Both the position numbers and the translations under genes were made by a program. The notes below the pieces were generated by a model that saw nothing but the letters and a program-made list of their open reading frames with translations, had not been told where the DNA came from and did not search any database. A stretch of 64,000 bases of DNA from an uncultured Planctomycetota bacterium (lineage in GTDB: Bacteria; Planctomycetota; Planctomycetia; Gemmatales; Gemmataceae): NCBI GenBank assembly GCA_963849325.1, contig CAWKHF010000005.1, positions 352,001 through 416,000 of the forward strand, read 5' to 3'. Shown here one piece after another: positions 2,317 through 61,877 of this stretch. Numbering within the stretch: position 1 is the stretch's first letter; every line of letters starts with the position of its first letter.

Positions 2317-5300
2317 ATGGCGGTCCGGATCGACAATCAGGCCGAGCCAATTCCCGGCTACAAGCTCATCGAGCGCCTGGGCGGCGGCGGCTTCGGCGAG
2401 GTCTGGAAGTGCGAGGCGCCCGGCGGCCTGCACAAGGCCATCAAGTTCGTCTTCGGCGATCTCGGCGCCGCCGGCGAGGACGGCCATCGTGCCGAGCAGG
2501 AACTGAAGGCCCTCAGCCGCGTCAAGACCGTCCGTCATCCATACATCCTGTCGCTGGAACGCTACGACATCGTCGATGGTCAGCTCATGATCGTCATGGA
2601 GCTGGCCGACCGCAACCTGTGGGACCGCTTCAAGGAGTGCCGGGCCCGCGGACTGCCCGGCATCCCCCGCGACGAGCTGCTCGGCTACATGGAGGAGACG
2701 GCCGAGGCGCTCGATCTGATGAACAGCCAGTATCAGCTGCAACACCTGGACATCAAGCCGCAGAACCTGTTCCTGGTTTATCAACACGTCAAGGTGGCCG
2801 ATTTTGGCCTGGTCAAGGATCTGGAGGGCATGCAGGCGTCGGTGACGGGTGGCGTCACGCCGGTGTACGCCGCGCCCGAGACGTTCGACGGCTGGGTCAG
2901 CCGCTTTTGCGATCAGTACAGCCTGGCCATCGTCTATCAGGAATTGTTGACGGGCCAACGGCCGTTCAACGGCAGCAACATACGTCAGCTGATCTTGCAG
3001 CACTTGCAGGCGCCGCCCAACGTCAGCTCGCTGCCGCCGGGCGAGCAGCCGGCCATCGCCCGCGCCCTGTCCAAGACGCCGGGCGACCGCTTCCCGACCT
3101 GTCACGAACTGGTCGAGGCGCTCAAGAACGGCGGGGCCGGCGGTGGCGCCGCTTCCGAGACGGCGCCCGCGGTGGAAGCGATCGCCCCCTCGCAGGTGAG
3201 TGGCCTGGTCGCCTCCGTGGGAAGACTCACCGACAACCGCACGGACAGCGCGGAAGAGTTCACCGATGACACCGCGGTGACAGCGAGCCTCCGTCAACTC
3301 CGCCGCCCCGACTCCAACCCGTGTACCACGGACGCTCTCCGCGGCGAAGGTGCCGCCCCGTCGGGCACGGCCGCCGAGCCGCGCAAGGCCCCGCCGGAGG
3401 TCAACGGCAACGGCGTCCTCTTTCCCGCCCTGGTCCTCGGTCTAGGCCAGCTCGGTCTGAGCGTGGTGCAGCGGCTACGCCAGCGTTTGCACACGCGCTT
3501 CGGCGGCCTGGAATGCCTGCCACACCTGCGGTTGCTGGTCCTCGATACCGACCCGGAAGTGGTCCGCACCGCCGGCCGCGCCGCCGCCGCCGCCCGTCTG
3601 TCCGAGGCCGAAGTATTGCTGGCCCCGCTGAATCGTCCCAGCCACTACCTCAAACCGCGCGACGGCCGACCCGACATCGACAGCTGGCTCAATCCGCGCA
3701 TGCTCTACCGCATCCCGCGTTCGCAGGTGACCACCGGCGTCCGCGCCCTCGGCCGGCTCGCCTTCTGCGACAATTATCGTCTCATCACCCTTCGCTTGCA
3801 GGCCGAGCTGAACGCCTGCATGGACCCCGACGCCCTGGCCTCCGCCGTCCATCAGACGGGGCTGGGCCTGCGCACCAACCGCGTCCGCGTCTACGTCGTC
3901 ACCAGCCTGGCCGGCGGCAGCGGCGGCGGCATGTTCCTCGATCTGGCCTACACCCTCCGCGCCCTGCTCAAGCAGGCTGGCTACGAGCAGCCCGACGTGG
4001 TGGGCGTGTTCCTGCTGCCCGGCGTCGATCGCAACCGCACGCGCGTGCTGACGCTGGGCAACGCCTGCGCCGCCCTGCGCGAGTTGAGCCACTTCGCCCG
4101 CCCCGGTACGACGTTCACCGCCCGCTATCACCAACGCGAGGCGCCCGTGCAGGACAGCGAACCGCCGTTCAGTCGCTGCGTCATGCTGCCGTTGCCGGAG
4201 GAGACCGACGAGGCGTCCACGCGCGAGCTGGTCGAGCTGACCGGGCTGTTCTTGTCGCGCGATTTGTGTTCGCCGCTGGGCCGAGTGGCCGACCTGGGCC
4301 GTGGCGGCGTGACCGGCCTGCCGTGGGATTCGCGCGGCCTGTTCTATCAGACGTTCGGCCTGTATCCGCTGTCCTGGCCGCGCCACGCCCTGCTTCGCAC
4401 CGTGCGCGCCGCCTATGTCAGCGCCTGATCCAGCGCTGGATGAGCAAGGATAGCAAGCCGCTCCGCGAGTCGGTGCGGGCCTGGATGCAGGAGCAGTGGA
4501 CGCAGCAGGAGTTCGGCTCCAGCATCCTGATGGAACGACTCAACGAGGCCGGCCGTCAGGCGCTCGGCCGCGACCCGGACGACGTCTTCCGCGGCCTGAC
4601 CGAGCCGCTGCTGGAACGCCATGCCACCGTTCTGAATCCGCCTTCGAAGCGGGGCGGCGCCGCCGTCGAACCGCATTTGCCTCCTGAAGAGATCGCCGAA
4701 GTCCTCGAGCAGTTCGAGCAACTCCTGGGCAAGCCGCAGGACGATGGCCTGTCCGAGACGCCGGCACGATTGGTCGTCGCCCTGCGCGAAGCGGCCGACC
4801 GCCTGGTCCACGAGTGGGGCCAGAAGTTGGCCGAACTGCCGGTGCGCCTGATTGAGGAGCCGGAGTTTCGCCTGGCCGGCGCCGAGGAGATCGTCCGGCA
4901 GATGGTGGCGTCGCTCGAGCAGGCCTTGCAGCATCACGAGCCGTTGTCCAAGGAGTTGACCAACCGCGCCGTCGAGGCGTACACCCGGCTGCAAGCGCTG
5001 GCCGTGCCGTCCGCGGAGAAGGCCGGCGCCTCCGGCGTCTTCCGCAAGGTCGGTTCTCGCGGCGGCCATCGCCCGATGGCCGTCGAGGCGGTCGAGTTGC
5101 TGCGCAGCTATCCCAAGTCGCTGTACCAGAGCCTGGTGCTGCGCCAGGCCGGCAATGTTTTGCTGACGCTGCGCGGTCACCTGGCCGACGAGATGCGCGA
5201 GATCAACTCCTGCCGCGTCCGTCTCGGCGAGCTGTTGCGCAAGCTGGAGGAGCCGGCCGACTCCGCCGTGTCGTCGGCGGCGCAGGCGGCGATCGGCAAA

Positions 5301-5903
5301 CACATCTTCCCCACCGGCTGCAAGGACTTCGCGGAGACGGCCACCTACTTCGAGGACCGCCTCGGTCCCGACGCGCTGCTCGTCCTGGATGGCCGCATGG
5401 AAGCGATGCTCAAGAAGCAGTTCACGGCGTTGGTCAACGTCTGCCTGACCAGCGGCAACGTGCTGAAGAACGTCGAGACGGCGATGCTGCAAACGGCCGA
5501 GCGCTTCGTCGCCGAGCAAGTAGGCGAGATCAACGTGGCGGAGATGTTCCGCGATCACCACCCCGACGCGGCGCAGGCGTCTCAGGAGATCGTGGGTTAC
5601 TTCGACGACGCCGCTCCCGAGCTGCCGGCCGAGCGTCGCGGCAATGGCGCCGAGCTGTGCGTGCTGGCGACGCCGGCCGGCCCGGCCGGCGATCACTTCC
5701 GCGAGTTGGCGGCCACGGCCTTACCCGACGTCGAATGGCACGCCGCCCCCGGTGACGAGGACATCGTACTCTACCGCGAATTGACCAACCTGCCGCTGTC
5801 CGACCTGCCGCAGCTGGGACCACTCGGTCAAGACGCATACCGCCAGATGAGCGCCGCCGAACATTTCACGCCGCATTGCCGCTGTGACGTTGATTTCAGC
5901 TGA
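2317..5903 (+). CDS. Ser/Thr protein kinase fused to a tubulin/FtsZ-like (Tubulin_2) domain and helical C-terminus (frameshift about 4405)
   Basis: Kinase motifs GGGGFGEVW, AIK, HLDIKPQN, DFG, APE. Tubulin-like motifs LGLGQLG, LDTD, GVRALGRLA, SLAGGSGGGMFLD. The C-terminal part continues in the 3321..5903 frame. Confidence 0.85.
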
Positions 5904-6283
5904 TTTCGCCAATCATCATACATTGCGAAATCGCAAGAATACTTCCTGTCTTAAATTAACATTCGTTAATATTTCTTTCCGCTCTCTCATCTTCTCCCGC
6001 TTGCCGTTAATATATTTTGATCCGCAAGTCTCGTATATCATTGGACTTGAGAAAGCTGAAGAAGAAGTAACGGAACTTCTTGTCCGATTTCGCGCCGATT
6101 TCGATGGAATATATAGGGGGCGTTCTGCCTCCTGAATCCCTCACAGGTAAAAACGACTGCTCTTCGAGCCGTCAGTGGGAGCGTGCCGCGTTCCAGCGTG
6201 CGCATCCTCGCGGCTGGAACGCGCAAATTTTTATCTGTGCGGGGATCTCCAAATGGTCCTGCCCATCGCCCGAGGAGATCCGC

Positions 6284-6889
6284 ATGAACGCGCAACAAGG
6301 CGGGCCATTCAGCGATGACGAAGACCTGCATCGCGACGATACACGAATGGTCCGGGACGACAATACCTTTCCTGGCCTGGCCGAGCATATCCGGCGGTGT
6401 CTGCACGAAGTCGGGTTGACGCCGGAGCAAGTGGAGAGGGTAACGCAGCAGGTATGGCTGGCGCTCCTGGAGAACAGGCACCTCTTTGAGGGAGAGCACG
6501 CGGAGCAACAACTGCACGCCTGGGTTGATCGCGTCGCCCACGGCAAAGCAATGGACGAACATCGCCGGGCACGACGCGAGCGGCGACTGTTTCGCGCCCT
6601 GGATGCCTTGCGGGCGGAGCCGAAAGATCGGCGAGAGGATGCGGCCGAACAGGCGGAAGTCACGCAGCACTGGTGCGAATGGTTGCGCGAAGGGATGGAG
6701 GAGATGCGCGTCCAGCATCCGCTCAATTATCGCTTGTTGTACGGCCACTACATGGAGGGGCGTAGGGCCAAGGATCTGGCGAAGGAGGAGGGTTTGAGTG
6801 TGAACGCGGTGTACCAGCGTCTTCGCTGGGCGAGGGCGTGGCTCCGAAAGCGGATGACGGAAGGAGGCGATTATGGAAGCCTGCCTTAA
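6284..6889 (+). CDS. Sigma-70/ECF-like sigma factor
   Basis: GAGGAG RBS before ATG 6284; QQVWLALLE..LHAWVDRVAHGKAMD (region 2) and AKDLAKEEGLSVNAVYQRLRWARAWLR (region 4 HTH). Confidence 0.75.
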   Translation: MNAQQGGPFSDDEDLHRDDTRMVRDDNTFPGLAEHIRRCLHEVGLTPEQVERVTQQVWLALLENRHLFEGEHAEQQLHAWVDRVAHGKAMDEHRRARRERRLFRALDALRAEPKDRREDAAEQAEVTQHWCEWLREGMEEMRVQHPLNYRLLYGHYMEGRRAKDLAKEEGLSVNAVYQRLRWARAWLRKRMTEGGDYGSLP

Positions 6890-7054
6890 TGCCGTCCCGG
6901 AATGTGAGGAAATAAATCTATTTTTTCATCACAGATTTTGGGGGGTCGAGCGATTACTATGGATAGAGGCAGAAAAAGGCGAATGCGGAGAGGAAGGCGA
7001 TCCTTGCGTCCGGTTCGGCGTGCGCCCGGAGGGTCGCCAAGGGAGGGACAATCC

Positions 7055-7321
7055 ATGCGCGGCTTGCTGGCGGCGCTGCGCCGCAAACTGAGGCTGATCC
7101 GCTGTAGGGGACGGATCGATTTCGTGCCGCCGGAGGCGGACGAGGGCTCGTTCACCTACTACGACGGGCCTTCCTTCGTTTGGACGGAGGCGGGATTTGA
7201 AGAGTCGGGTAAACCGACTCTCTGCGGCGACCGGCCGCGAACGAAGCCTGGCAATCTTCCGGTCAGCGCTCCGCTGGTAGAGGAGCCACCGGCAGAACCA
7301 TCGTGGTGCTATTGCATCTGA
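7055..7321 (+). CDS. Small hypothetical protein (88 aa) ending WCYCI
   Basis: GGGAGGGA RBS then ATG 7055; fills the gap between the sigma gene and the next gene; no recognisable domain. Confidence 0.4.
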   Translation: MRGLLAALRRKLRLIRCRGRIDFVPPEADEGSFTYYDGPSFVWTEAGFEESGKPTLCGDRPRTKPGNLPVSAPLVEEPPAEPSWCYCI

Positions 7322-7343
7322 GGACTCACGCGGAGAACGTGTC

Positions 7344-8777
7344 ATGTCCGCAACGCGGATTGTCCGGGTAGGGCATTGTGCCGTCATTCTCGGCTGTGCA
7401 GCCCTGCTGGGCTTTGCGGCGAATGCCCATGCTGATCCCAAGCCGCTGTCGAAGGCAGAGCAGGCCAAGGTCGATAAGGCCATCGAGCGTGCCGTGGCGT
7501 TCGTCAAAAAGACGCAGAAGGAGACGGGAGAGTTTGGCGAACTGAAACTCCGACTACCGGGGCTGGTTTTCAACCGCGGCTATTTCTTTTTCCCTGCACT
7601 GGCGCTCCTGGAAAGCGGCGTTCCGGGGTCCGATCCAGCCATCCAAAATGCGGCTAAGATGGTCCGCGCCTGGGAATCCCAGATGGATCGCACCTACGGC
7701 GTGTCCGTGGCTATCTTGTTTCTAGATCGATTGGGCGACCCAAGAGACAAGGAGATCATACGCAGCCTGGCTCTGCGATTGATTGCGGGGCAGACCTACA
7801 CTGGGGGGTGGGGTTATTATTGCCCTACACTCAGCGAGCAAAACCAGAACCTCCTCTGGAAAACTCTACTTGCCTTGCACGCCCACAACAATCCTCCCTC
7901 CGAGCCACGGGAGGGAAAAGCGCCAAAGTCTCCTAAGATAGCGAAAACCAACCCATCCATCCCTGTGATTTTGAGGAGCTTGGCGATCTTTCAGGATCCG
8001 ACGCGCCTTTTCAAACGCCGGGAAATTCTAATCCCTGAGGGGGCACCTCCTCCGAACCTGAACTCGCGTTTTTTGCTTGGGACCACGGATAATTCCAATA
8101 CCCAGTTTGCTGTATTGGCCCTATGGGCGGCGAGCCGGCATGGTATTCCCGTTGACCGGACCTTGGCTCTCGTCATCAAACGCTTCAGGGCGAGTCAAAA
8201 CGAGGACGGCACATGGAATTATCGTTATGGGTTCACCGGAACAGATCGTGGAAAATGGGACGGGCTGGGACCGAACAACACGGCGGCCGCTCTTATCGGA
8301 TTGGCAATGGCGTACGGGGTGCGCCAACCGCATCAGGAGAGCGTTGATCCTGATATTCGTGAGCGGATTATCCGAGGCTTGGCAGTCTTGAGCAAGACGA
8401 TTGGCACACCGACAGGACAGATGGATCGACAAGTGCCTATGGCGGACTTGTATACCTTGTGGACCATAGAGCGCGTGGCTACCCTGTACAATCTTTCGGT
8501 GATCGACGGGAAGGACTGGTATCGATGGGGCGCTGAAATTCTCGTGACCAATCAGACAGATGACGGAAACTGGATTCGCACAGCGTTACATGCCAACGTA
8601 GTGATTCGCCCGTCCTTTGGTTTACTGTTCTTGAAACGAGCGAATTTTACGAGAGATTTAACGGCGAAATTGCCCTTCACAGCGAAGGAGTTGAACGAGG
8701 GAATCGCACGCCTACGGTCCAGCGATAGCCGCATGGAACGATCGATCGCCACTCCAAGCCGTAGCACAAAGCCCTAG
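7344..8777 (+). CDS. Secreted prenyltransferase/squalene-cyclase-repeat (alpha/alpha toroid) protein, copy 1
   Basis: Signal peptide (..GFAANAHA-DP); QW-like repeats QTYTGGWGY, QNEDGTWNY, QTDDGNW; DNSNTQFAVLAL; LWTIERVA..DWYRWGA. Confidence 0.75.
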   Translation: MSATRIVRVGHCAVILGCAALLGFAANAHADPKPLSKAEQAKVDKAIERAVAFVKKTQKETGEFGELKLRLPGLVFNRGYFFFPALALLESGVPGSDPAIQNAAKMVRAWESQMDRTYGVSVAILFLDRLGDPRDKEIIRSLALRLIAGQTYTGGWGYYCPTLSEQNQNLLWKTLLALHAHNNPPSEPREGKAPKSPKIAKTNPSIPVILRSLAIFQDPTRLFKRREILIPEGAPPPNLNSRFLLGTTDNSNTQFAVLALWAASRHGIPVDRTLALVIKRFRASQNEDGTWNYRYGFTGTDRGKWDGLGPNNTAAALIGLAMAYGVRQPHQESVDPDIRERIIRGLAVLSKTIGTPTGQMDRQVPMADLYTLWTIERVATLYNLSVIDGKDWYRWGAEILVTNQTDDGNWIRTALHANVVIRPSFGLLFLKRANFTRDLTAKLPFTAKELNEGIARLRSSDSRMERSIATPSRSTKP

Positions 8778-8831
8778 CGTTGATCGGAGGAGCGGTTTCT
8801 CATCACCGATTCGCCCCTTGCGAGGAAAGCC

Positions 8832-10279
8832 ATGTTTCTGAAGCTGCGCATGTGCTTGCGAAAGGTCGCTCCTCTCCTCGGCTGTGCAGTCGTGCTTGGG
8901 TTCGGCATCGCATCCACGCCGATCTCAAGCCGCTGTCGAAGGCGGAGCAGGCCAAGGTCGATAAGGCCATCGAACGGGCCATGGCGTTCGTGAAAAAAAC
9001 GCAGAAGGAGACGGGAGAGTTTGGAGAGCTTCAAATCCGACTACCGGGTCTGATCTTCAACCGCGGCTATTTCTTTTTTCCGGCTTTGGCGCTCCTGGAA
9101 AGCGGAGTTCCAGCGACAAATCCAGCCATCCAAAAAACGGCTAAGATGGTCCGCGCCTGGGAACCCCAGATGGATCGCACCTACGGCGTGTCCGTGGCTA
9201 TCTTGTTTCTAGATCGATTGGGCGACCCAAAAGACAAGGAAATTATACGCAGCCTGGCACTGCGTCTGATCGCGGCGCAGACCTACACTGGGGGGTGGGG
9301 CTATTATTGTTCGACCCTCAGCGAGCAAAACCAGAAAATCCTCTGGAAAACTCTGCTTGCCTTGCACGCCAAAGACTATCCTTCATCCGACTCGCGGGAT
9401 GGAAAAGCGCCAAAGTCTCCTCAGATAGCGAAGACCAACCCATCCATCCCCGCGATTTTGAGAACCTTGGCGATCTTTCAGGATCCGACGCACCTCTTCA
9501 AGCGCAGAGAAGTTCTGATACATGAGGGAATGCCTCCTCCGAACCTGGACTCGCGTTTTCTGGCCGGGACCACGGATAATTCTAATACCCAGTTCGCTGT
9601 GCTGGCCCTGTGGGCGGCGAGTCGTCATGGCATTCCCGTTGACCGGACCTTGGCCCTTGTCGTCAAACGATTCACATCGAGCCAAAACGAGGACGGCACG
9701 TGGAATTACCGTTATGAGTTTACCAGAAGAGGTCGTGGAAAATGGGATGAGCGAGGGATGTGCAACACGACAGCCGCTCTTCTTGGATTGGCAATGGCGC
9801 ATGGGATGCGCAAATTGCCTCAGGACGTTACGGCTGCCGATATTCAGGAGCGGATTATCAAGGGCTTGGCGGTCTTGAGCAAGGAGATTGGTACTCCAAC
9901 AGGACAGATGAATCGGCAAGTGCCCATCAAGGACTTGTATTTCTTGTGGTCTGTGGAGCGTGTTGCTACACTGTATAACCTTTCCTTGATCGGCGAGAAA
10001 GACTGGTACCGCTGGGGCGCTGAAATCCTCGTGACCAATCAGAAGGATGATGGGAACTGGTTTGGCACAGGGTCCTATTTCAACGTAGCGGTCAGCCCGT
10101 CCTTTGGCTTGCTGTTCTTGAAGCGGGCGAATTTCACGAGAGAACTGACAGCGAAATTGCCTCTGATGGGCCGAGAACTGAACAAATCCATCATCGCTCA
10201 TTTGCGGTCGAGCGGAACGCCGACTTCTCCATCGTTGGAAAGTCGAGGAGCAACTTCCGAGTCCAACAGGGGACCCTGA
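8832..10279 (+). CDS. Secreted prenyltransferase-repeat protein, copy 2 (frameshift in signal peptide about 8910)
   Basis: Tandem paralog with long identical stretches to copy 1. ATG 8832 gives MFLKLRMCLRKVAPLLGCAVVLGFGIA, which joins HADLKPLSK in another frame. Confidence 0.75.
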
Positions 10280-10459
10280 TCCCTGAAGTAGATGATGGTG
10301 TCTGCCGCAAATATTGCCCCCGAATGATCCAGCGATTCACGCGAGAACGCGCTGACGCTCTATGCCACTTGCTCCACGATCAACGGGCATTGCGCACATT
10401 CCATCGCATCGCCCGCAAGGATAATCCGTGTCGCCCTTTACTCGCAAAGGAGGTCTGCT

Positions 10460-12484
10460 ATGTTGTCTACCGCGATCCGCCTGTACCGATGGTTCTCCGC
10501 ACCCGGCCAGACGAGGAGCCTTCGCCGCCATCCGCACTTCTTCTGTCCCAGGCTCGAAATCCTGGAAGATCGGCTGGTCCCCGATGCGATGACGTTTGTG
10601 AATCCGATTACAGGTCTTCCCAGCGTTGGGTCCTACACGGTGCTCGGGAACTGGACCGATCTGGGCCTTCTAGGAGGGCCTGGGCCCGCGAAGGCATTGC
10701 CTGGTGCCAACGACACGGCGGACATCCCCGTCGGAGCGAGTTGCACCCTTAGCAGTCTCAACGAACAGGGTCTCGCCGGCTTGACCGTGGAAGGCAGCAT
10801 GGCCGTTGCCTCGCCCCTGAGCGTCAGCGGCAACGCCACCATCTCGGGCAGCGCCGCCATGACCGTCTCCTCGCAACTGAGCGTCAGCGGCACCACCTCC
10901 CTCACCGGCAGCGCCACCCTGCTCATCGGCAGTTCCAGCGATCCCAACGCCGAAGCCTCCCTCGACACCGACACCTTCGATATGGACAGCACCGCCACCG
11001 CTACCGTCGGCGGACCCAGCGGCGGCAGCAACGGCTCCATCGACGCCACCTTCGCCACCCTCGGCGATTTCGCCCTCCTCAACCTCGGCGACCCCGGCAC
11101 CGGACTGGGCGGCAACATGGACGTCTCCAACACCATGACCATGAACGGCGGCACCCTCATCGTCGGCGGCGCCGGCGGCAGCGGCTCCGTCCTCGACGTC
11201 TACACCCTCAACGCCGCTGGCTCCAACGCCACCACCGTCAACAGCGGCGGCGAGATCGATGTGAAGAACACGGCCCTCTTCGGCGGTCCCAGCACGGTCT
11301 ACGGCGAGATCAAGGCCGAGAACGGCGGCGCCTTCGATGGCGGCAGCGTCGTCCTGGGCGGCACCGGCACCGTCAGTGGCGCCAACGGCAAGCTCGTCGC
11401 CGAGATCAACGGCTCCTTCACTTTCTTCAACGGCTCGACCTGGACCATCGGCGCCGGCAATCCCGTCGGCAGCGCCCTCAACGACGGCCAGTTCTTCATC
11501 GGTGGCACGCTGAACGTGAACACCGCCCTCAACCCCGACGGCGACATCACCCTCGACTCCAGCGGACTCCTCGCCGGCAGCGGCAGCCTCGACGAGTGGC
11601 ACGATTTCACCTGGAACGGCGGCACCCTGTCCATAGCCGGCGGCACCACCATCGAGCCGTCCAGCGACTTCAAAATGATCAACGGCGGCACCCTGGCCAG
11701 CAATCTCACCAACATCAGCTCCTACACCGAATTGCAGGGCGGCAGCAGCTTGAACCTCACCAATGGCGCCATCTTCGACAACGCCTTCGGCACCACGGCC
11801 GTGTCCATTCCCAACATTGTCACCTATGGCGGCGGCACCTTCATCAACGATGCCAACGGCACCCTGGAGGTGCAGACGCCGCTCACGATTTTCAGCCCCT
11901 TCACCAACACCGGCACCCTGGACGTGTCCGGCGGCTCGTCGCTGACGCTGAGTCCCTCCAGCGGCGCGGACGAGTTGGATGGCACGCTCGACCTGGAGGG
12001 CGTCATGACGCTGCTGGGCACGTTCGTGTCGTCCAATGGGCTGATCGTCAATGGCAGCGAGGCGCTGCAGGTCGGCGATGACAGCGGCGACAGCGGCAGT
12101 CTGGCCTTATCGCAGGGCGCCAACATCTTCGGCCACGTGGAAGTGACCGGCAGCGGCACGCTGACCAGCGATGCCCAATTGAGCAATGAGGGTACGCTGA
12201 CGCTGGACCTGGGCGGTGTGAACAGCCTGGCCTCTTATCAGCAGGCTTCCTACGGGACGCTGGAGCTGCAGCAAGCGCCGTCGGCGTTCACGACGCTGTC
12301 GGTCACGGGCAGCGCGGCGTTGGCGGGCACGGTCGATCTGCAATACGTGGACGGTTACACGCCGTCGTCGGGGACCGCGTTCACGGTGGTGACGGCCGGC
12401 TCGATCGGCGGACATTTCGATGTCATTCCCGACGGCATGACGGCGACCTACAATCCCACCAACGTCATCCTCACTCAGAATTGA
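10460..12484 (+). CDS. Planctomycete extracellular Gly/Thr/Ser-rich beta-helix (autotransporter passenger-like) surface protein
   Basis: AAGGAGG RBS; PRLEILEDRLVP motif; repetitive GxLxV/GGTL strands; C-terminal L.VTGSAALAGTV..YTPSSGTAFTVVTAGSIGGHF cap. Confidence 0.8.
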   Translation: MLSTAIRLYRWFSAPGQTRSLRRHPHFFCPRLEILEDRLVPDAMTFVNPITGLPSVGSYTVLGNWTDLGLLGGPGPAKALPGANDTADIPVGASCTLSSLNEQGLAGLTVEGSMAVASPLSVSGNATISGSAAMTVSSQLSVSGTTSLTGSATLLIGSSSDPNAEASLDTDTFDMDSTATATVGGPSGGSNGSIDATFATLGDFALLNLGDPGTGLGGNMDVSNTMTMNGGTLIVGGAGGSGSVLDVYTLNAAGSNATTVNSGGEIDVKNTALFGGPSTVYGEIKAENGGAFDGGSVVLGGTGTVSGANGKLVAEINGSFTFFNGSTWTIGAGNPVGSALNDGQFFIGGTLNVNTALNPDGDITLDSSGLLAGSGSLDEWHDFTWNGGTLSIAGGTTIEPSSDFKMINGGTLASNLTNISSYTELQGGSSLNLTNGAIFDNAFGTTAVSIPNIVTYGGGTFINDANGTLEVQTPLTIFSPFTNTGTLDVSGGSSLTLSPSSGADELDGTLDLEGVMTLLGTFVSSNGLIVNGSEALQVGDDSGDSGSLALSQGANIFGHVEVTGSGTLTSDAQLSNEGTLTLDLGGVNSLASYQQASYGTLELQQAPSAFTTLSVTGSAALAGTVDLQYVDGYTPSSGTAFTVVTAGSIGGHFDVIPDGMTATYNPTNVILTQN

Positions 12485-54756: not shown

Positions 54757-55941
54757 TCAACGCTTGATCGTCTTCGGCACGGGGTCGGTGGCGAACGGCC
54801 AATCTACCGGCTGATACTTGATGCCCAGGTGCGGCGTCTCGACGCGGCGATGCTTCTCGGCCCGGCTCGTCATCACCGCGTCGAGAATGCCGGTGGTCAG
54901 CAGCGTCCGCTCGACGGGGTAGGCGGCGTGTCCGGTCTGCATCATGGAGTCGATGGCCCTGACGAGATAGGCGAAGTGGCCGAACGGATCGGGATGCTGC
55001 AAATAGAAATGCGTGGCAACCGGCTTATCGCGGCCCTTGAGTCGGCCGGCGAAGATGAAGGCGCCGCCGTCGCCCTCGTGGATCCAGCCGTTGGGCATCA
55101 GGACCGCCGCTCGGAAGCCGTCGCGGTACTCGATGAGAAACAGTCCGGCGTCCTTCGCCTTCGATGTCGTCTCGCGGATGTCGGTCCTGGCGTGCGCCGG
55201 CACCAGCGCCGACGCCGCCTCCAGCAGCGGCTTCGACCAGCGGCCCTCGTCCAGCGCCTGCCACATGGCCGCGCCTTGCAAACACTGCACGGCGCGGACG
55301 CCGGTCTCGCCGCCCTTGCGGCGCTCGGCCATGCACTGCAAGCCCTCCAGGGCGTGGAAACCGTAGCCCTCGAATGGCCCGTAGCCGATCTGCACTGCCT
55401 CGATCAGCGGGCAGTCCTTCGGCAGTTTCAACGGCGGCCGCCGCCACGTCAGCGGCACCGACGAGCCGGCCATCAGCGGCACGAACAGGGCGCGCGATCG
55501 ATCATACATCCATTTCGCGTCGGTCCACGTCGCGGACAAGTGCTTATCACTGAACACCGGCATGGACTTTTTCGACTTCTCGAAGACCTGGCACACTTCC
55601 TCGAAGAAGCGGCGGCGCGGGTAGAGAACTTGGCCGCGCGCGTTCTTCGGATAGTCGCCGTGCTCGCCGATGCACAACACGCCATCCACGGCCAACCCGT
55701 CGCCGCCAAGCGTCAGGGCGCCCGCGATGGTGGGATAGATGGTGAAGCCGTGCTTCTTCGCCAGGTCACGGCTCCTGTCCTTCGCCGGCGTCTGATCGAC
55801 GTACAGGGACACGAGTTTCAGGTTTGGGCCAGCGCCGCCGTCGTGGTTGTACCCTTCGAGGATTTTGCCGACGATGACGTCGGCGTGCGACCAGCGCGTG
55901 TACACGGTGACGACGGCGGCAACTCGTTTGGGTTGGTTCAT
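54757..55941 (-). CDS. Hypothetical protein, divergent Gfo/Idh/MocA-like oxidoreductase
   Basis: SHADVI.GKIL.G, VDGVLCIGEHGDYP, PVFSDKHLS, MAGSS.P, YGFHALE, YPVERTLLTTG. Fold assignment is inferred. Confidence 0.7.
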   Translation of the reverse strand: MNQPKRVAAVVTVYTRWSHADVIVGKILEGYNHDGGAGPNLKLVSLYVDQTPAKDRSRDLAKKHGFTIYPTIAGALTLGGDGLAVDGVLCIGEHGDYPKNARGQVLYPRRRFFEEVCQVFEKSKKSMPVFSDKHLSATWTDAKWMYDRSRALFVPLMAGSSVPLTWRRPPLKLPKDCPLIEAVQIGYGPFEGYGFHALEGLQCMAERRKGGETGVRAVQCLQGAAMWQALDEGRWSKPLLEAASALVPAHARTDIRETTSKAKDAGLFLIEYRDGFRAAVLMPNGWIHEGDGGAFIFAGRLKGRDKPVATHFYLQHPDPFGHFAYLVRAIDSMMQTGHAAYPVERTLLTTGILDAVMTSRAEKHRRVETPHLGIKYQPVDWPFATDPVPKTIKR

Positions 55942-55954
55942 AGGCGCTCCCAAT

Positions 55955-56017
55955 GTTTAGCCGCGACGCGCAGCGGAGCGCGGCCGTCCCGCGCTCCGCT
56001 GCGCGTCGCGGCTAAAC
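55955..56017. repeat. REP-like palindrome GTTTAGCCGCGACG family, copy 3
   Basis: Same arms as 26948-27010. Confidence 0.9.
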
Positions 56018-56021
56018 GAAA

Positions 56022-57017
56022 TCACTCGGCGGGTTGCAGCTTCGGAAAATTCTTCGATACCAAGGTCTCAAACTTCGTATCGGTCTTGCGGACCATGCGG
56101 GCGCTGGCGCCGCGGGACTCGATGATCTTCATGCCCTTTTCCGGCCCAAGCACGGCGGCCACCTTCGTCAGACTATCGGAGTCGATACCTTTTTTCGCCA
56201 CGACTGTCACGCTCATTCGGCCAACCAAGCCAATCCCCGTTCGCGGATCGACAATGTGCGAATAGCGCTTGCCGTCGATCTCGACGAACTGCTCGGCGTC
56301 GCCGGAGGTGGACACGGCGGCGTCGCGCAGGACGAGGCGGCCGGCGTCCTTCTCGCCGGGCAGCGGAGCGATGGCGACCTTCCAGCCCTCGGCGCCGGGC
56401 GGCGGTCCACTGACGGCGATGTCGCCGCCGGCAGCGACGAGAGCGCGGCCCAGTCCGTGCTTGTGCAGCACCGTCAGCGCCTCGTCGGCCGCGTAGCCCT
56501 TGGCGATGCCGCCCAGGTCGAGCAACATGCCCGGCTTGAGCAGCTGCACCGTGCGCGCCTTCTCGTCCAGGCGGACGTTGCGCCAGCCGACCAGGGCGCG
56601 AGCCTCGGCCAACTTCTCGGTGTCGGGCAACTTCTTCTGCTTGCGCGCCTTGCGCCACAGACGCACCACCGGGCCGACTGTCACGTCGAATGCGCCATCG
56701 GATTGTCGGGACACTTCCTGCGCACGGGATAGAACAAAGAACAGTTCGGCGCTGACCGGCACGGGCGGCCCGCCGGCGCGGGTACACAAGCGCATCAATT
56801 CGCTGGTTGGATCGTAGTCGCTCATGGTAGCATTGAGGGACGCGATGCGAGCGAAGGCGTCCCGGACAGCGCGGTCGGCCATGTCCCTGTCCGGCGCGTA
56901 AACGAGGATTCGGAACCGCGTACCCATGTGCGGTTCGGTGTAGCTGTAGCGCGACAGGGCGGGTTCCGCCCCTCCCGCCAGCAGGACGGCCAGCAGACCG
57001 AATAGACGCGGACGCAT
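56022..57017 (-). CDS. apbE: FAD:protein FMN transferase
   Basis: MGT, SDY.P.SEL, GAFDVTVGP, LDLGGIAKGYAAD, GGDI, STSG, YSHIVDPRTG. Confidence 0.95.
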   Translation of the reverse strand: MRPRLFGLLAVLLAGGAEPALSRYSYTEPHMGTRFRILVYAPDRDMADRAVRDAFARIASLNATMSDYDPTSELMRLCTRAGGPPVPVSAELFFVLSRAQEVSRQSDGAFDVTVGPVVRLWRKARKQKKLPDTEKLAEARALVGWRNVRLDEKARTVQLLKPGMLLDLGGIAKGYAADEALTVLHKHGLGRALVAAGGDIAVSGPPPGAEGWKVAIAPLPGEKDAGRLVLRDAAVSTSGDAEQFVEIDGKRYSHIVDPRTGIGLVGRMSVTVVAKKGIDSDSLTKVAAVLGPEKGMKIIESRGASARMVRKTDTKFETLVSKNFPKLQPAE

Positions 57018-57071
57018 GGCGTGGACCTCCTCAATCGACAACCTCTGGCAACGTTGTGGAGATTACCACAG

Positions 57072-58108
57072 ATGGGACGACTGTTACAGTTTTCCGTGGC
57101 TGCCAGTCTCGGCGTGCTGGTCCTGGCCCTGGGACGGCCGGGCGAGATCCCCGAGGCGGCGCCGGCCCGCGCCGAAGCGCCGGCGGCGGCGCATCCGTCG
57201 TACACGGAGACCATCCCCGGCACCCAGGCGAAGTTTGAGATGATCGCCATCCCCGGAGGCGAATTCGTCATGGGCAGTCCGGCCACGGAAAAGGACCGCA
57301 AGGACGACGAAGGGCCGCAGCATCCCGTCAAGGTTCGACCGTTCTGGATGGGCAAGTGCGAGGTGACGTGGGACGAGTTCGACCTGTTCTGGCGCGCCAA
57401 GCCGGGCCAGAAAGAGGACAAGGAGCCGGACAATCCCAAGGACGCCGACGCCGTCACGCGACCGACGCCGCCCTACGCCGACGAGACCTTCAAAAAGGGC
57501 CGCGAGGGTCATCCGGTCCTGTGCATCACCTGGCACGCCGCCATGCAGTATTGCCGCTGGTTGTCGGTCAAGACCGGCAAGGCCTACCGTCTGCCGACTG
57601 AGGCCGAGTGGGAGTACGCCTGCCGCGCCGGCACCAAAACGGCCTACTTCTTCGGCGACGATCCCGCCAAGCTCGGCGATTACGCCTGGTTCATGGATAA
57701 TGCCGACGACAAGACGCATCCGGTCGGCAGCAAGAAGCCCAATCCGTGGGGTCTGCACGACATGTACGGCAACGTGTCCGAATGGTGTCTCGACGAATAC
57801 AAGAGCAACGCCTACGCCGGTTTCTCCTCCGACAAGCCGACGCTGGCGCCGGTGGTGCTGCCGGGCGAGAAAGTGTTCCGCGCGCGGTGCGTGGCGGCTC
57901 GTGGGGCGACGAGGCCAAGGACTGCCGCAGCGCCGTCCGGTTGGCCTCGGAGCTGGCCTGGATGGTCCAGGATCCGCAACGGCCGCGCAGCATCTGGTGG
58001 CTGACCGACGCCGATTTCGTTGGGTTTCGTGTGGTCCGTGCTGTCGAGGAACAGGACAATTTGAAGGGCTTCCGCTCGCGGATCACGCGGCAAAGCCCGG
58101 TGGAGTAA
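57072..58108 (+). CDS. Secreted FGE/sulfatase-modifying-factor (SUMF1-like, C-type-lectin fold) domain protein (frameshift about 57885)
   Basis: Signal peptide; GGEFVMGS..DEGPQH.V, EVT, YRLPTEAEWEYACRAG, PNPWGLHDMYGNVSEW, RGGSW, GFRVV. Confidence 0.92.
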
Positions 58109-58111
58109 CGC

Positions 58112-58168
58112 TACCAGCCCAGAGCGTCAGCGACGGGGCGGACCCGTCGCTGACGCTCTGGGCTGGTA
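58112..58168. repeat. REP-like palindrome (AGCCC.GAGCGTCAGCG family)
   Basis: TACCAGCCCAGAGCGTCAGCGACGGG-N5-CCCGTCGCTGACGCTCTGGGCTGGTA. Confidence 0.9.
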
Positions 58169-58232
58169 TCCCTGCGTTCCTGGTATGGTGCCGGGCGCAG
58201 GGCCAATCCTTTCGCACCAGGAGAGACACGAG

Positions 58233-59537
58233 ATGAATAGCAGCGACACGACTCGGGACAGCGCCTCGCGGCGCGATTTCCTCAAGACGACGACGGTGGC
58301 GGCTGGCGCCGCCCTGGTCAGCAACCTGAGCCTGGCGCCGGCGGTCCACGCCGCCGGCAGCGATCAGATCAAGGTCGGCATCATCGGCTGCGGCGGCCGC
58401 GGCGGCGGCGCCGGCGAAGACGTCCTTCGCTCCGCCAAGGGCGTCACCATCCATGCTCTAGGCGACGTGTTCTCGTTCCAGGTGGACGGCGCCCGCGGCC
58501 GTCTTTCCAAGCTCGCCCAGAAGGACGACATCAAGGGCATGGGCAACAGCGTGGACGTGGATGGCCGTTGTTTCAGCGGTCTGGACGCCTACAAGCAGGT
58601 GCTCGACAGCGGCATCAACTACGTCATCCTGGCCACCTCGCCGGGCTTCCGGCCCATCCACCTGCAAGCGGCCGTCGCCGCCGGCAAGAACATCTTCACC
58701 GAGAAGCCCGTCGGCGTGGACGGACCCGGTATCCGCAAGGTGCTCGAAGCCTACGAGGAAGCCCAGAAGAAGGGCCTGCACATCGCCGCCGGCACCCAGC
58801 GCCGCCATCAGCTGCCCTACATCGAGACGATGAAGCGCATTCACGACGGCGCCATCGGCGACATTGTCGGCGGTCGTGGCTACTGGATGCAGGGCATCCT
58901 GTGGGCGCGCGATCCGCGGCCGGAGATGACCACCGATGTCGCCAAGCAAATTTGGAACTGGTACAACTACACCTGGCTGTGCGGCGATCACATCGTCGAG
59001 CAGCACGTTCACAACCTCGACGTGCTCAACTGGGCCATCGGCACGCACCCCGTCAGCGCCGTCGGCATGGGTTATCGCACTCGTACCGACCCGCGCTACG
59101 GCCACATCTACGACTTCTTCGCCATCGACTTCAAGTATCCCAAGGGCGTCCACACGCTGAGCATGTGCCGGCAGATCAGCAACTGCGCCAGCGAGGTCGG
59201 CGAATACCTGGTCGGCACCAAGGGCATGTGCCACGTCAACGCCTACAACATCAACGGCAAGAGGGTCGCCGGCAAGGGCGGCACCAATCCCTACGTGCAG
59301 GAACACACCGACCTGATCGAGAGCATCCGTACCGACAAGCCGCTCAACGAACTGAAACAGGTGGCCGAGAGCACGCTGACAGCCATCCTGGGCCGCATGT
59401 CGGCGTATACCGGCAAGGAAGTGTCGTGGGAGCAGGCGCTCAACTCCAAGGAAGACACGATGCCCAAGGATCTGACCTGGGAGATGAGTTTGCCGATGCC
59501 GCCGGTCGCGGTCCCCGGCAAGACGGCGCTGATTTGA
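58233..59537 (+). CDS. Tat-exported Gfo/Idh/MocA oxidoreductase, copy 1
   Basis: SRRDFLK; IGCGGRG; EKP; GTQRRH; GDHIVEQHVHNLD. Confidence 0.95.
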   Translation: MNSSDTTRDSASRRDFLKTTTVAAGAALVSNLSLAPAVHAAGSDQIKVGIIGCGGRGGGAGEDVLRSAKGVTIHALGDVFSFQVDGARGRLSKLAQKDDIKGMGNSVDVDGRCFSGLDAYKQVLDSGINYVILATSPGFRPIHLQAAVAAGKNIFTEKPVGVDGPGIRKVLEAYEEAQKKGLHIAAGTQRRHQLPYIETMKRIHDGAIGDIVGGRGYWMQGILWARDPRPEMTTDVAKQIWNWYNYTWLCGDHIVEQHVHNLDVLNWAIGTHPVSAVGMGYRTRTDPRYGHIYDFFAIDFKYPKGVHTLSMCRQISNCASEVGEYLVGTKGMCHVNAYNINGKRVAGKGGTNPYVQEHTDLIESIRTDKPLNELKQVAESTLTAILGRMSAYTGKEVSWEQALNSKEDTMPKDLTWEMSLPMPPVAVPGKTALI

Positions 59538-59632
59538 CGAAACGAATGGCTTGACAAGCCCACCGCGCCGGCGACGGAATGGTCTCGCCGTCGGCGCGGG
59601 GGGCGGGTAGCCCGAATCAGGAAAGACCGAGC

Positions 59633-60951
59633 ATGAACGACCCCAACACGAATCGGAAGCGCGCCACGCGGCGTGATTTCCTCAAAACGACGACGGTGGC
59701 GGCCGGCGCCGCCGTGATCGGCAACCTGAGTCTGGCGCCGGCGGTCCACGCCGCCGGCAGCGATCGAATCAAGGTTGGTCTTATCGGTTGCGGCGGTCGC
59801 GGCAGCGGCGCCGCCGAGAATGTGTTGTCCGCCGCGCCGGGCGTCCACATCGTGGCCCTGGGCGACGTTTTCGCCGACCGTCTCCAGGCGGCCCGCGACC
59901 AGCTGACGAAATTCGCCGCGCAAAAGGAGATCCAGGAGCGTGGCAACGCCATCGATCTGCCGGAGTCGCGCTGCTTTGTCGGGCTGGACGCTTACGACAA
60001 GGTGATCAACTGTGCGGAAGTCAACTACGTGATTCTGGCGACGCCGCCCGGCTTCCGTCCCCTTCACCTGCAAGCGGCCGTCGCCGCCGGCAAGAACATC
60101 TTCGCCGAGAAACCCGTCGGCGTGGACGGACCGGGTATCCGCAAAGTGCTGGCCGCCTACGAAGAGGCCCAGAAAAAGGGCCTGCACATTGTCGCCGGCA
60201 CGCAACGCCGCCATCAACGAGCTTATCTGGAAACCCTGAAGCACATCCAGGACGGAGCGATCGGCGAGCTGGTCGGCGGCCGCTGTTACTGGAACCAGGG
60301 TACGCTGTGGAAGCGTCTGGCCAAGCCGGGCGTGACCGACGTCGCCTATCAGATTCACAACTGGTACGCCTTCCCCTGGCTGAGCGGCGATCACATCGTC
60401 GAGCAGCACGTCCACAATCTCGACGTGCTCAACTGGGCGTTCGGCGCCCGCCGGTGGCGGCCGTGGGCATGGGCTACCGCGTGCCCCGCGATGAGGGCTT
60501 CGGTCCCATTTACAACTTCTTCGCCATCGACCTGGAGTATCCCAAGGGCGTCCACGCCCTGAGCATGTGCCGTCAAATCGACAACTGCGTCAACGAGATT
60601 GGCGAGCACCTCGTCGGCAGCAAGGGCCACTGCCACGTCAACGCCTACAACCTCAACGGCAACGTCCTGTTCAAGCGCGCCCAGTTGAAGCAACATGCCA
60701 ACCCCTACGTGCAGGAGCACACCGACCTGATCGAGAGCATCCGCTCCGGCAAGCCGCTCAACGAGCTGAAACAGGTGGCCGAGTGTACGCTGACGGCCAT
60801 CCTGGGCCGCATGTCGGCGTACACCGGCAAGCGTGTCTCGTGGGAGCAGGCGCTGAACTCGAAGGAAGACACCATGCCCAAGGATCTGACCTGGGACACG
60901 CACTTGACGGTGCCGCCGGTGGCCATGCCCGGCAAGACGCCGCTGATTTGA
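59633..60951 (+). CDS. Tat-exported Gfo/Idh/MocA oxidoreductase, copy 2 (frameshift about 60448)
   Basis: TRRDFLK; same motifs as copy 1; tandem paralog. Confidence 0.93.
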
Positions 60952-60966
60952 CGGACGAGCCGCACA

Positions 60967-61000
60967 TCCACCCGGAGGGTCGGGCGACGCTCCGGGTGGA
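60967..61000. terminator. Hairpin between convergent genes
   Basis: TCCACCCGGAG...CTCCGGGTGGA. Confidence 0.5.
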
Positions 61001-61027
61001 CGGCGATCGATGGCCAGCTCTCTCCGC

Positions 61028-61877
61028 TCACGTCTCCGGGTCGATCCCCAACGCACGCAGTTGGGCGGCCAGTCGCTCGGCGCGTTGGCGTTCCTGCTCG
61101 GCGCGTTGCCGTTCTTGCTCGGCGCGTTGGCGCTGCTGCTTGGTTCGCTTTCGCGCGCTGGGTCTGTTGCTCGGCCTGTTCGGTGCGTTCCTGGCCGGTG
61201 GGTATGAGGAAGCCGTCGCGGTCGCACCAACGCAGCCAGTTGCGTTCGGACCACTCTTCATAAACGCCATCCCATAACGTCAAGCCCAGTCCCACCTTGG
61301 GCAGCCACGCGGTCTTGGCAGGTCGATAGACGCCCCCGCGCAAAGCGAAGACGCGCAGGATGCCGCCGTCCAAGTGATTATCCGGATCGTAAATGACGTA
61401 ATAGGGGACCGGGATGCTCTCGTATTCGTCCTTCTTGTAGTCCTCCTCGCCGCCGCGGCGATCCGAGACGAACTCGATGGCCACTTCCGGCGGTTTGCCG
61501 ACGATCCAGGTGAAGTAAGAATTGTTCTCTTTCCGCGACAGATCTCTGCCGACGGGGTAATCGAGGCTGAGCATGACGTCCGGAACCAGCGGTGGTTTCT
61601 TCGAGTAGAAGAGTCCCACGTTGGAGAAAACCACGAAGGTGCGGCCGCCCGCCGGCTTCCACGACACGTACAACGGCTCGGTTAGCAGCCGGTACTGCTT
61701 TTCCGCGTAGATGCTTTCCACGGGTTCGCCGTCCTCGATGACCAGATCGTCGATATTGGGCCACTCTTGGGATGGTAATGGGGAAGGCGTATTATCACCT
61801 GGTCCAGTCGGCGACCACGAAGGGGGGTCCAGTGGATTCGTGGGATCGATGATGTCGTCGTCCACAGCGTCTCCCAT
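61028..61877 (-). CDS. Uma2/DUF820 family endonuclease-like protein with coiled-coil tail (frameshift about 61150)
   Basis: EDGEPVES..EKQ.RLL, PDVMLSL, PPEVAIEFVS, YYVIYDP, WLRWCD; AEQERQR repeats; LRALGIDP. Confidence 0.9.

Follow-up and report, generated by a model that had tools for sequence, protein, structure and literature searches.

The FAD:protein FMN transferase ApbE (FAD, flavin adenine dinucleotide; FMN, flavin mononucleotide) attaches FMN to the last residue of a short motif, D-x-x-[S/T]-G-A-[S/T], in carriers such as those of the FMN_bind, NqrB/RnfD, DUF2271 and DUF3570 families (Meheust et al., 2021; PMC8238504). The motif is treated in the accessible part of PMC12052999, which gives a loss of ∼50% for a Gly-to-Ala or an Ala-to-Val substitution. 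The 2021 census reports orphan apbE genes, their substrates unidentified, in 4% of genomes and notes that less prevalent substrates were not identified (PMC8238504). A second group of relevance is that of Gfo/Idh/MocA oxidoreductases exported by the twin-arginine translocation (Tat) pathway. In the available sections of PMC8121099 and 10.1101/2024.03.25.586180, the reoxidation of bound nicotinamide adenine dinucleotide (NAD) in Tat-exported Gfo-type sugar 3-dehydrogenases is left open, and one of the two proposes 'specialized proteins, such as cytochromes' for this step. Here, we analyzed a stretch of 64 000 nucleotides (hereafter the window) from an uncultured Planctomycetota bacterium of the Gemmataceae (GCA_963849325.1, contig CAWKHF010000005.1, positions 352 001 to 416 000), in which apbE stands beside a gene for a probably secreted protein with the fold of formylglycine-generating enzyme (FGE) and two genes for Tat-exported Gfo/Idh/MocA proteins. 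An initial annotation had proposed that the FGE-fold protein is a covalent flavoprotein serving these oxidoreductases, and on comparative evidence this appears to be the best-supported reading of the locus.

Such a combination seems to be absent from earlier descriptions. The terms FGE, sulfatase, Gfo, NapC and sugar do not appear in the main text of PMC8238504 (its cluster tables are in supplements outside the scope of this comparison), nor do FGE, sulfatase or Gfo in that of 10.1101/2024.03.13.584918. Among the publications found, some of which were accessible only in part, none relevantly linked ApbE or flavinylation to FGE-type proteins, PvdO, Gfo/3-keto enzymes or NapC.

The apbE gene of the window (56022..57017, minus strand; the ATG at 57017 taken as start) encodes a protein with a hydrophobic N-terminal export signal that matched PF02424 (E = 1e-79; 268.3 bits versus a cut-off of 25.6). 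Its best solved relatives are the FMN transferases 7esa (E = 8.9e-47; residues 23-319) and 6nxi (residues 26-325), with which its GGIAKGY, TSGD and YSHI(V/I)DP stretches align; the assignment of catalytic residues follows the review PMC12052999. Across a divergent intergenic region of 54 bp that is common to both genes (57018..57071), apbE lies head-to-head with the FGE-fold gene (57072..58108, plus strand; ATG at 57072), an arrangement already noted in the initial annotation and on which the coordinates and the PF02424 and PF03781 matches agree. Two Gfo/Idh/MocA genes with Tat signals follow on the plus strand. The first (58185..59537; PF01408, PF22725 and PF02894) has its likely true start at ATG 58233, and the second (59579..60951) is a paralog 69-75% identical to it. 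The assignment of this pair was borne out by PF01408 (32.4 and 44.1 bits; cut-off 24), PF22725 (30.1 bits) and the Tat signal model TIGR01409 (26.7 bits; cut-off 16.7), although the second gene is frameshifted.

The FGE-fold gene matched PF03781, the FGE-sulfatase domain (E = 6.5e-51; 173.9 bits), and the hydrophobic N-terminus of its product, MGRLLQFSVAASLGVLVLALG, read directly from the sequence, bears on an extracytoplasmic location. Intact orthologs have 345 amino acids, and the 120 listed homologs, labelled Gemmataceae, are 61-85% identical and mostly 339-349 amino acids long. The protein belongs to a distinct subfamily, with members in Planctomycetota, Verrucomicrobiota and Bacteroidota that have in common a loop insert and a C-terminal DPQxPxSxWW. 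A catalytic FGE needs two catalytic cysteines near its C-terminus. In a 27-sequence alignment of the subfamily, the only invariant cysteine was C161, and the C-terminal cysteine of RGGSWGDEAKDC was replaced by leucine in several members. Since no cysteine pair is conserved, the subfamily is not a catalytic formylglycine-generating enzyme, and a role as a true FGE for sulfatases was rejected. The closest solved fold is PvdO (PDB 5hha; Foldseek E = 1.2e-19, 32% identity). For the ortholog P0002, an AlphaFold model had a mean pLDDT (predicted local distance difference test score) of 76.6, with residues 110-133 below 50. The candidate site discussed below is therefore located where a loop of low confidence, which is probably flexible, ends.

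This candidate flavinylation site is the loop D126-A-V-T-R-P-T132-P-P-Y, whose ten codons are located exactly at 57447..57476 (plus strand); Thr132 (57465-57467) is the proposed FMN acceptor. The stretch is indeed an insert, as had been claimed, and the other FGE paralogs of the same genome do not have it (four best tblastn alignments). It does not conform to the published motif, with Arg-Pro in place of Gly-Ala. In an alignment of the 120 closest homolog clusters, all 120 had Asp at motif position 1, Thr or Ser at position 4 and Pro at position 6, and position 7 was Thr in 119 and Ser in one. The part of the insert that precedes the loop (108-124) was variable among the same homologs. Judging from this alignment, the loop is under strong selection.

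More distant relatives connect the loop with the published motif. The aligned loop in distant members of the subfamily reads DAVSGAT, DVVSGAT, DAISGAT or DAITGAT (loci L076, L081, L095, L097, L098 and L102), and intermediate loops also occur (DAVAGAT, DAI(S/T)GPT and DAISQPT). Thus, the suggestion that DAVTRPT is akin to an ApbE site gained support, as the homologous loop is the exact Dxx[S/T]GA[S/T] in these members. Among the 120 best homologs of the L095 protein (P0372), 119 carry Dxx[ST]GA[ST] and the remaining one has DAISGPT. The canonical motif was also present in four lineages without a fusion (L019, L075, L076 and L081). A scan of the window's own genome for D..[ST]GA[ST] in open reading frames (ORFs) of at least 80 amino acids gave 41 matches, all of them distant from the two apbE genes and without a context that would suggest a flavin carrier. 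Two metagenome contigs (L092 5334-8008 and L103 6001-7927) contain two or three tandem FGE-fold genes or domains with the loops D-G-V-T-R-P-S or D-A-V-T-R-P-T, and no ApbE or Gfo gene lies within the available flanks of these contigs.

Further indications come from natural fusions. The proteins of L095, L100 and L102 have a NapC/NirT tetrahaem domain (PF03264) N-terminal to the FGE domain, and in the L095 sequence a membrane helix at the N-terminus and four CxxCH motifs are visible. All 120 best homologs of the L095 protein contain both PF03781 and PF03264, and 119 of them have four CxxCH. The nine ORFs with four CxxCH among the 83 subfamily ORFs that we compared all have Gly-Ala or Gly-Pro loops. 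In addition, P0267 joins a subfamily member that has the loop DVVSSPT to a planctomycete cytochrome c domain. When the representatives were searched with a profile of the subfamily alignment, the best 150 were nearly all long multi-FGE-domain proteins, and the useful single-domain fusions were limited to P0267 and P0271; no fusion with ApbE or Gfo/Idh/MocA was present among the 120 listed longer forms of P0002. A flavin fits between a hydride donor such as NAD(P)H and one-electron haems. The cytochrome fusions point to electron transfer and would fit a redox role beside exported Gfo/Idh/MocA enzymes; for the fused relatives, the electron chain appears to be nearly spelled out by the domain order.

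To measure how closely the subfamily is associated with apbE, we used a sample of 121 genomes of the family, with an ApbE ortholog in 118 and an FGE ortholog in 117. The apbE gene lies within 3 kb of the FGE gene in 104 of the 115 family genomes with an FGE ortholog row, and all 104 pairs are divergent; in most of the other 11 genomes, the genes are at contig ends. Genomes without an ortholog-level FGE match (G006, G044, G057, G118, G096 and G100) also have no ortholog-level ApbE match, a co-absence that has to be read in view of the fact that adjacent genes can vanish in a single event. The 83 subfamily ORFs occur in 141 loci, and ApbE adjacency was defined here as a gene within 1.5 kb. The initial annotation had asked whether the motif goes together with apbE, and such a relationship was observed: an ApbE neighbor was present for 52 of 71 ORFs with Pro at position 6, for 0 of 9 with Gly-Ala and for 1 of 76 other FGE-family ORFs of these loci, the single case in the last group being a truncated subfamily member.

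The same genes recur in different orders. Outside Gemmataceae, the order apbE-FGE-Gfo is found in L024 and L073, L078 has Gfo-FGE-apbE-lactonase-sugar transporter, and L087 has Gfo, 3-keto-disaccharide hydrolase, FGE and apbE. In a sample of 301 genomes from other families of the phylum, divergent pairs occur in at least 10 genomes of three more families among the listed matches (150 of 416 ApbE matches). The L024 cassette (3020-10716), from a metagenome-assembled genome labelled Saprospiraceae, is co-directional and lies on an 11-kb contig beside a Rep3-type replication initiator and ParA-like genes; because of these neighbors, it may be plasmid-borne and mobile. The divergent apbE/FGE/Gfo cassette was also observed in L011, a contig of a proteobacterial metagenome-assembled genome labelled uncultured Alcaligenaceae, its proteins being 57-60% identical to those of the window. 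The ApbE of L011 falls within the Gemmataceae clade, and the contig looks like a mis-binned planctomycete one.

In a quick tree of a small sample of ApbE sequences (n = 36), the ApbE of the window and all 20 FGE-adjacent ApbEs formed one clade (Shimodaira-Hasegawa-like approximate likelihood ratio test 95), which also includes unlinked ApbEs of three genomes with Pro in the FGE loop. The second ApbE paralog of the family is a separate clade, and the ApbEs of the genome with DAVAGAT fall outside the FGE-adjacent clade. In the genome of the window (G000), this second paralog lies at C2:249800-253600 (L071 5377-10231) in an operon that also encodes a DoxX-like membrane protein and a Gfo/Idh/MocA protein with a Tat signal, preceded by a DUF4912 gene, and the order ApbE2, DoxX-like, Gfo was seen in seven of the eight family genomes examined (related loci L164-L171). 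No conserved flavinylation-like motif was present in a six-sequence alignment of the DoxX-like protein. As ApbE2 also adjoins a Tat-type Gfo gene, each of the family's two orphan ApbEs is linked to exported dehydrogenases of the Gfo type.

We also searched for the known ApbE substrates. No canonical FMN-binding substrate had been recognized near apbE, and this extends to the whole 8.16-Mb assembly (84.7% complete), in which PF04205, PF03116, PF10029 and PF12094 gave no match; the PF12094 result carries little weight, since this model matched in no control genome. Across the 121 family genomes, FMN_bind was found in one, NqrB/RnfD in 16 (weak partial matches of at most 34 bits) and DUF2271 in 18, where the ORFs are mostly of 500-620 amino acids and all 18 genomes contain a further ApbE match in addition to the usual pair. 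Thus, the family has ApbE without known substrate families, that is, orphan ApbE. In genome G056 (C13:33275-34681), a DUF2271 match abuts an ApbE match within one open frame of 570 amino acids, which therefore looks like an ApbE-DUF2271 fusion; such a protein looks like a third, self-contained flavinylation unit that would be separate from the two orphan ApbEs.

With respect to the dehydrogenases, 46 of the 83 subfamily loci have a Tat-bearing Gfo gene within 700 bp of the FGE gene and in the same orientation, and many of the others are cut by short flanks. Neighbors related to sugars in these relatives include SusC/D, xylose-isomerase-like TIM barrels, ThuA, 3-keto-disaccharide hydrolase and lactonase. 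In the Gfo alignment (25 sequences), no position was invariably Ser or Thr, and [ST]GA[ST] did not occur; thus, the dehydrogenase itself is an unlikely target of ApbE.

Taken as a whole, the cassette is best read as an extracytoplasmic redox module in which the FGE-fold protein would be a new class of ApbE substrate that oxidizes the NAD(P)H of exported dehydrogenases. The two Gfo/Idh/MocA dehydrogenases would be exported folded by the Tat pathway with NAD(P) bound, and the FGE-fold protein would be exported separately. In the periplasm, the neighboring ApbE may then take FMN from FAD and attach it to Thr132 in the D-A-V-T-R-P-T loop. The tethered flavin could accept a hydride from the dehydrogenase-bound NAD(P)H and release single electrons, which would pass to a cytochrome or to the quinone pool; in relatives, the fused NapC/NirT or planctomycete cytochrome c would be the acceptor. 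Redox potentials favor the direction from dehydrogenase to quinone. For the protein of the window, we infer the modification of the Arg-Pro loop by a specialized ApbE, the contact with Gfo, the direction of electron flow and the final acceptor. We assign a probability of roughly 0.58 to the window's FGE-fold protein being flavinylated and serving the Gfo enzymes, and we are more confident that there are ApbE substrates in the subfamily taken as a whole.

Several observations weigh against this reading. Arg-Pro stands where the published sites have Gly-Ala, Pro is absent from section 8 of PMC12052999 (as far as that source was available), and the literature searched contained no site with Pro. 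No flavin-binding pocket could be assigned, and the loop is of low confidence in the sole model. No cytochrome or other acceptor is conserved beside the cassette in six family loci, which have in common apbE, FGE, Gfo and sometimes a gene for a protein of 398 amino acids (see below). Locus L013 has apbE and the FGE gene and no Gfo gene within 10 kb; the core pair is thus apbE and the FGE gene. The linkage counts overstate independence, because the genomes are related and the synteny within the family is partly shared descent. Similarly, in the 301-genome sample, ApbE is present in 49 of 49 genomes with the subfamily versus 187 of 252 without it, a difference that overstates the signal because ApbE is common in these phyla. 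Finally, L072 and L074 contain Arg-Pro members without an ApbE within 1.5 kb, despite flanks of at least 1.5 kb on each side. The last case also agrees with an explanation that we consider unlikely, in which the loop is an ancestral flavinylation site that still functions in the Gly-Ala relatives, whereas the Arg-Pro form is unmodified and ApbE serves another target or acts mainly as a periplasmic FAD-hydrolyzing or flavin-trafficking protein. Arg-Pro alters both positions at which substitutions lower flavinylation (PMC12052999, as available), and a non-transferase activity of ApbE-family proteins has been described (PMC4767422, in the part at hand). It is difficult to reconcile such a loss, however, with the terminal Thr/Ser, the Pro and the Asp being invariant in 120/120 close homologs despite drift elsewhere in the insert, or with ApbE adjacency being confined to the Pro-type loops (52/71 versus 0/9 for Gly-Ala) and recurring in different gene orders and in other phyla. 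An alternative target would also have to be found, whereas the Gfo alignment offers no other conserved candidate site and the genome no known substrate family. Less probable still is that the FGE-fold protein is a non-redox accessory of Gfo, for example a substrate-binding or assembly factor, with a structural or binding loop and with the apbE linkage due to co-regulation or shared descent. Structural FGE-fold proteins such as PorK/GldK are among the fold and family matches, which would be compatible with such a role, and the loop has no confident structure; the complex prediction for Gfo and the FGE-fold protein (intact pair of L010; score of 0.00 versus a mark of 0.32, without controls) counts neither way. 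A chance or structural loop would not, however, be expected to match the exact seven-residue ApbE motif in 119/120 cytochrome-fused homologs and in the four unfused lineages (L019, L075, L076 and L081), and the fusions with NapC/NirT and planctomycete cytochrome c point to electron transfer.

The flavoprotein reading also has to face the state of the genes in this assembly, in which frameshifts affect the FGE gene as well as the second Gfo gene. The initial annotation was right about the presence of both genes but had overlooked the two one-base frameshifts. The FGE frame breaks near 57879-57887 within a CGCGCG run (∼57881), so that the last 75 residues are in another frame with a stop at 58108, and the second Gfo gene switches frame at about 60449. 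Taken at face value, the two broken frames would mean that the cassette is decaying and the system non-functional in this genome. This is very improbable. When proteins of close relatives were aligned to the genome, 7 of 14 genes were split over at least two frames, including a trpF-type phosphoribosylanthranilate isomerase, an orotidine monophosphate decarboxylase and an OPT transporter whose frame changes five times. Split genes also include the second apbE, the Gfo gene next to it and a paralog of the 398-amino-acid gene. The gene parts after the breaks are 65-89% identical to orthologs (75-89% for the C-terminal 75 residues of the FGE-fold protein) without further stops, and the FGE ORF is unbroken in both same-genus genomes (L040 and L041). 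For these reasons, the FGE gene and the second Gfo gene were treated as intact in the organism, the one-base frameshifts most likely being assembly errors by comparison with these relatives, and real pseudogenes were rejected because of the assembly-wide splitting. Single-base insertions or deletions are very frequent across assembly G000 (57879-57887, ∼60449 and C5:399506-402000 among the sites), and its gene calls and completeness estimate (84.7%) are probably affected by them. One soil-metagenome sequencing run contains 6% of the sampled words of this genome, and there was no RNA run among those listed.

Two further ORFs flank or overlap the cassette. Downstream of apbE and on the same strand lies a gene for a protein of 398 amino acids (54757..55953, minus strand) that was family-less in our searches and has no evident signal peptide. 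Its initial description as Gfo-like could not be upheld: the gene matched no Pfam or NCBIfam model, and the label is not shown by the language-model lead to GFO_IDH_MocA, which is weak (0.83); its nearest Atlas clusters are Planctomycetota hypothetical proteins. It adjoins apbE in 5 of 17 apbE-containing genome loci (L004, L008, L010, L012 and L013) and is an optional component of the cassette. The frameshifted paralog of this gene in the same genome is located at C5:1066190-1067360. At the other end, an ORF of 390 amino acids (60705-61877, minus strand) with a Uma2-family putative endonuclease domain (PF05685; E = 3.4e-8) overlaps the 3' end of the second Gfo gene; the protein is probably shorter in reality, because its C-terminal part resembles the reverse strand of the Gfo gene.

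In a broader context, it is about an even chance, in our view, that this widespread FGE-fold family of Planctomycetota, Verrucomicrobiota and Bacteroidota represents unrecognized, ApbE-made covalent flavoproteins, which would turn the hydride of Gfo-bound NAD(P)H into one-electron steps to cytochromes c and the quinone pool, with a specialized ApbE clade co-evolved for D-x-x-[S/T]-x-P-[S/T]. If so, periplasmic sugar oxidation would become respiratory, and a substrate could be named for part of the orphan apbE genes left by the 2021 census (PMC8238504, as far as available). The carrier would be a fifth fold, structurally unrelated to the known ones, and would provide an answer to how Tat-exported Gfo-type dehydrogenases, whose NAD(P) is non-exchangeable in the periplasm, get reoxidized. 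Housekeeping ApbEs may not accept the proline-containing motif. If a proline motif occurs naturally together with an ApbE of its own, the rules for flavin tagging would become broader, which would matter for protein labelling with ApbE (PMC12052999).

Compared with enzymes of known function, the FGE-fold protein resembles the formylglycine-generating enzyme in its PF03781 domain and overall fold, and differs from it in having no conserved C-terminal cysteine pair. Its closest solved structure is that of PvdO of Pseudomonas aeruginosa (5hha), a periplasmic FGE-fold protein, and it matched the NCBIfam PvdO model with 130 bits. We know of no flavinylation or Gfo partner of PvdO. The score is, however, far under the PvdO cut-off of 500 bits, and the subfamily described here has the loop insert and the C-terminal DPQxPxSxWW. 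On the side of the dehydrogenases, the twin-arginine signal and the Gfo/Idh/MocA domains are those of Tat-exported Gfo enzymes with tightly bound NAD(P), such as the glucose-fructose oxidoreductase (GFOR) of Zymomonas and BT2158 of Bacteroides. The first Gfo protein is not an ortholog of BT_2158, because it reached only 31.4 bits with the model of that glycoside 3-dehydrogenase family (NF058561) against a cut-off of 750. LacABC-type enzymes are flavoprotein dehydrogenases that bring a cytochrome subunit with them, in contrast to the NAD(P) enzyme here, which would need a separate flavin carrier. The cytochrome-c-linked glucoside 3-dehydrogenase of this type (cited in the available part of PMC8121099) is nevertheless similar in that periplasmic sugar oxidation is joined to the respiratory chain through cytochrome c. 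Unlike the proposed module, GFOR and BT2158 are thought to recycle NAD(P) via a second sugar, and no protein partner is described for them in the accessible portions of PMC8121099 and 10.1101/2024.03.25.586180.

The closest parallel is provided by the ApbE-dependent systems with FMN_bind, NqrB/RnfD, DUF2271 or DUF3570 carriers (PMC8238504). As in these systems, an exported ApbE lies beside its presumed substrate in what would be a setting of extracytoplasmic electron transfer, a putative Thr or Ser acceptor ends a seven-residue motif that starts with Asp, and distant members have the exact motif. On the other hand, the putative carrier here has an FGE/C-type-lectin-like fold, x-Pro takes the place of Gly-Ala and the partner is a Tat-exported NAD(P) dehydrogenase. 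Thus, ApbE-based electron transfer outside the cytoplasm is already known, whereas the fold of the carrier, the variant motif and the class of client enzyme would be new.

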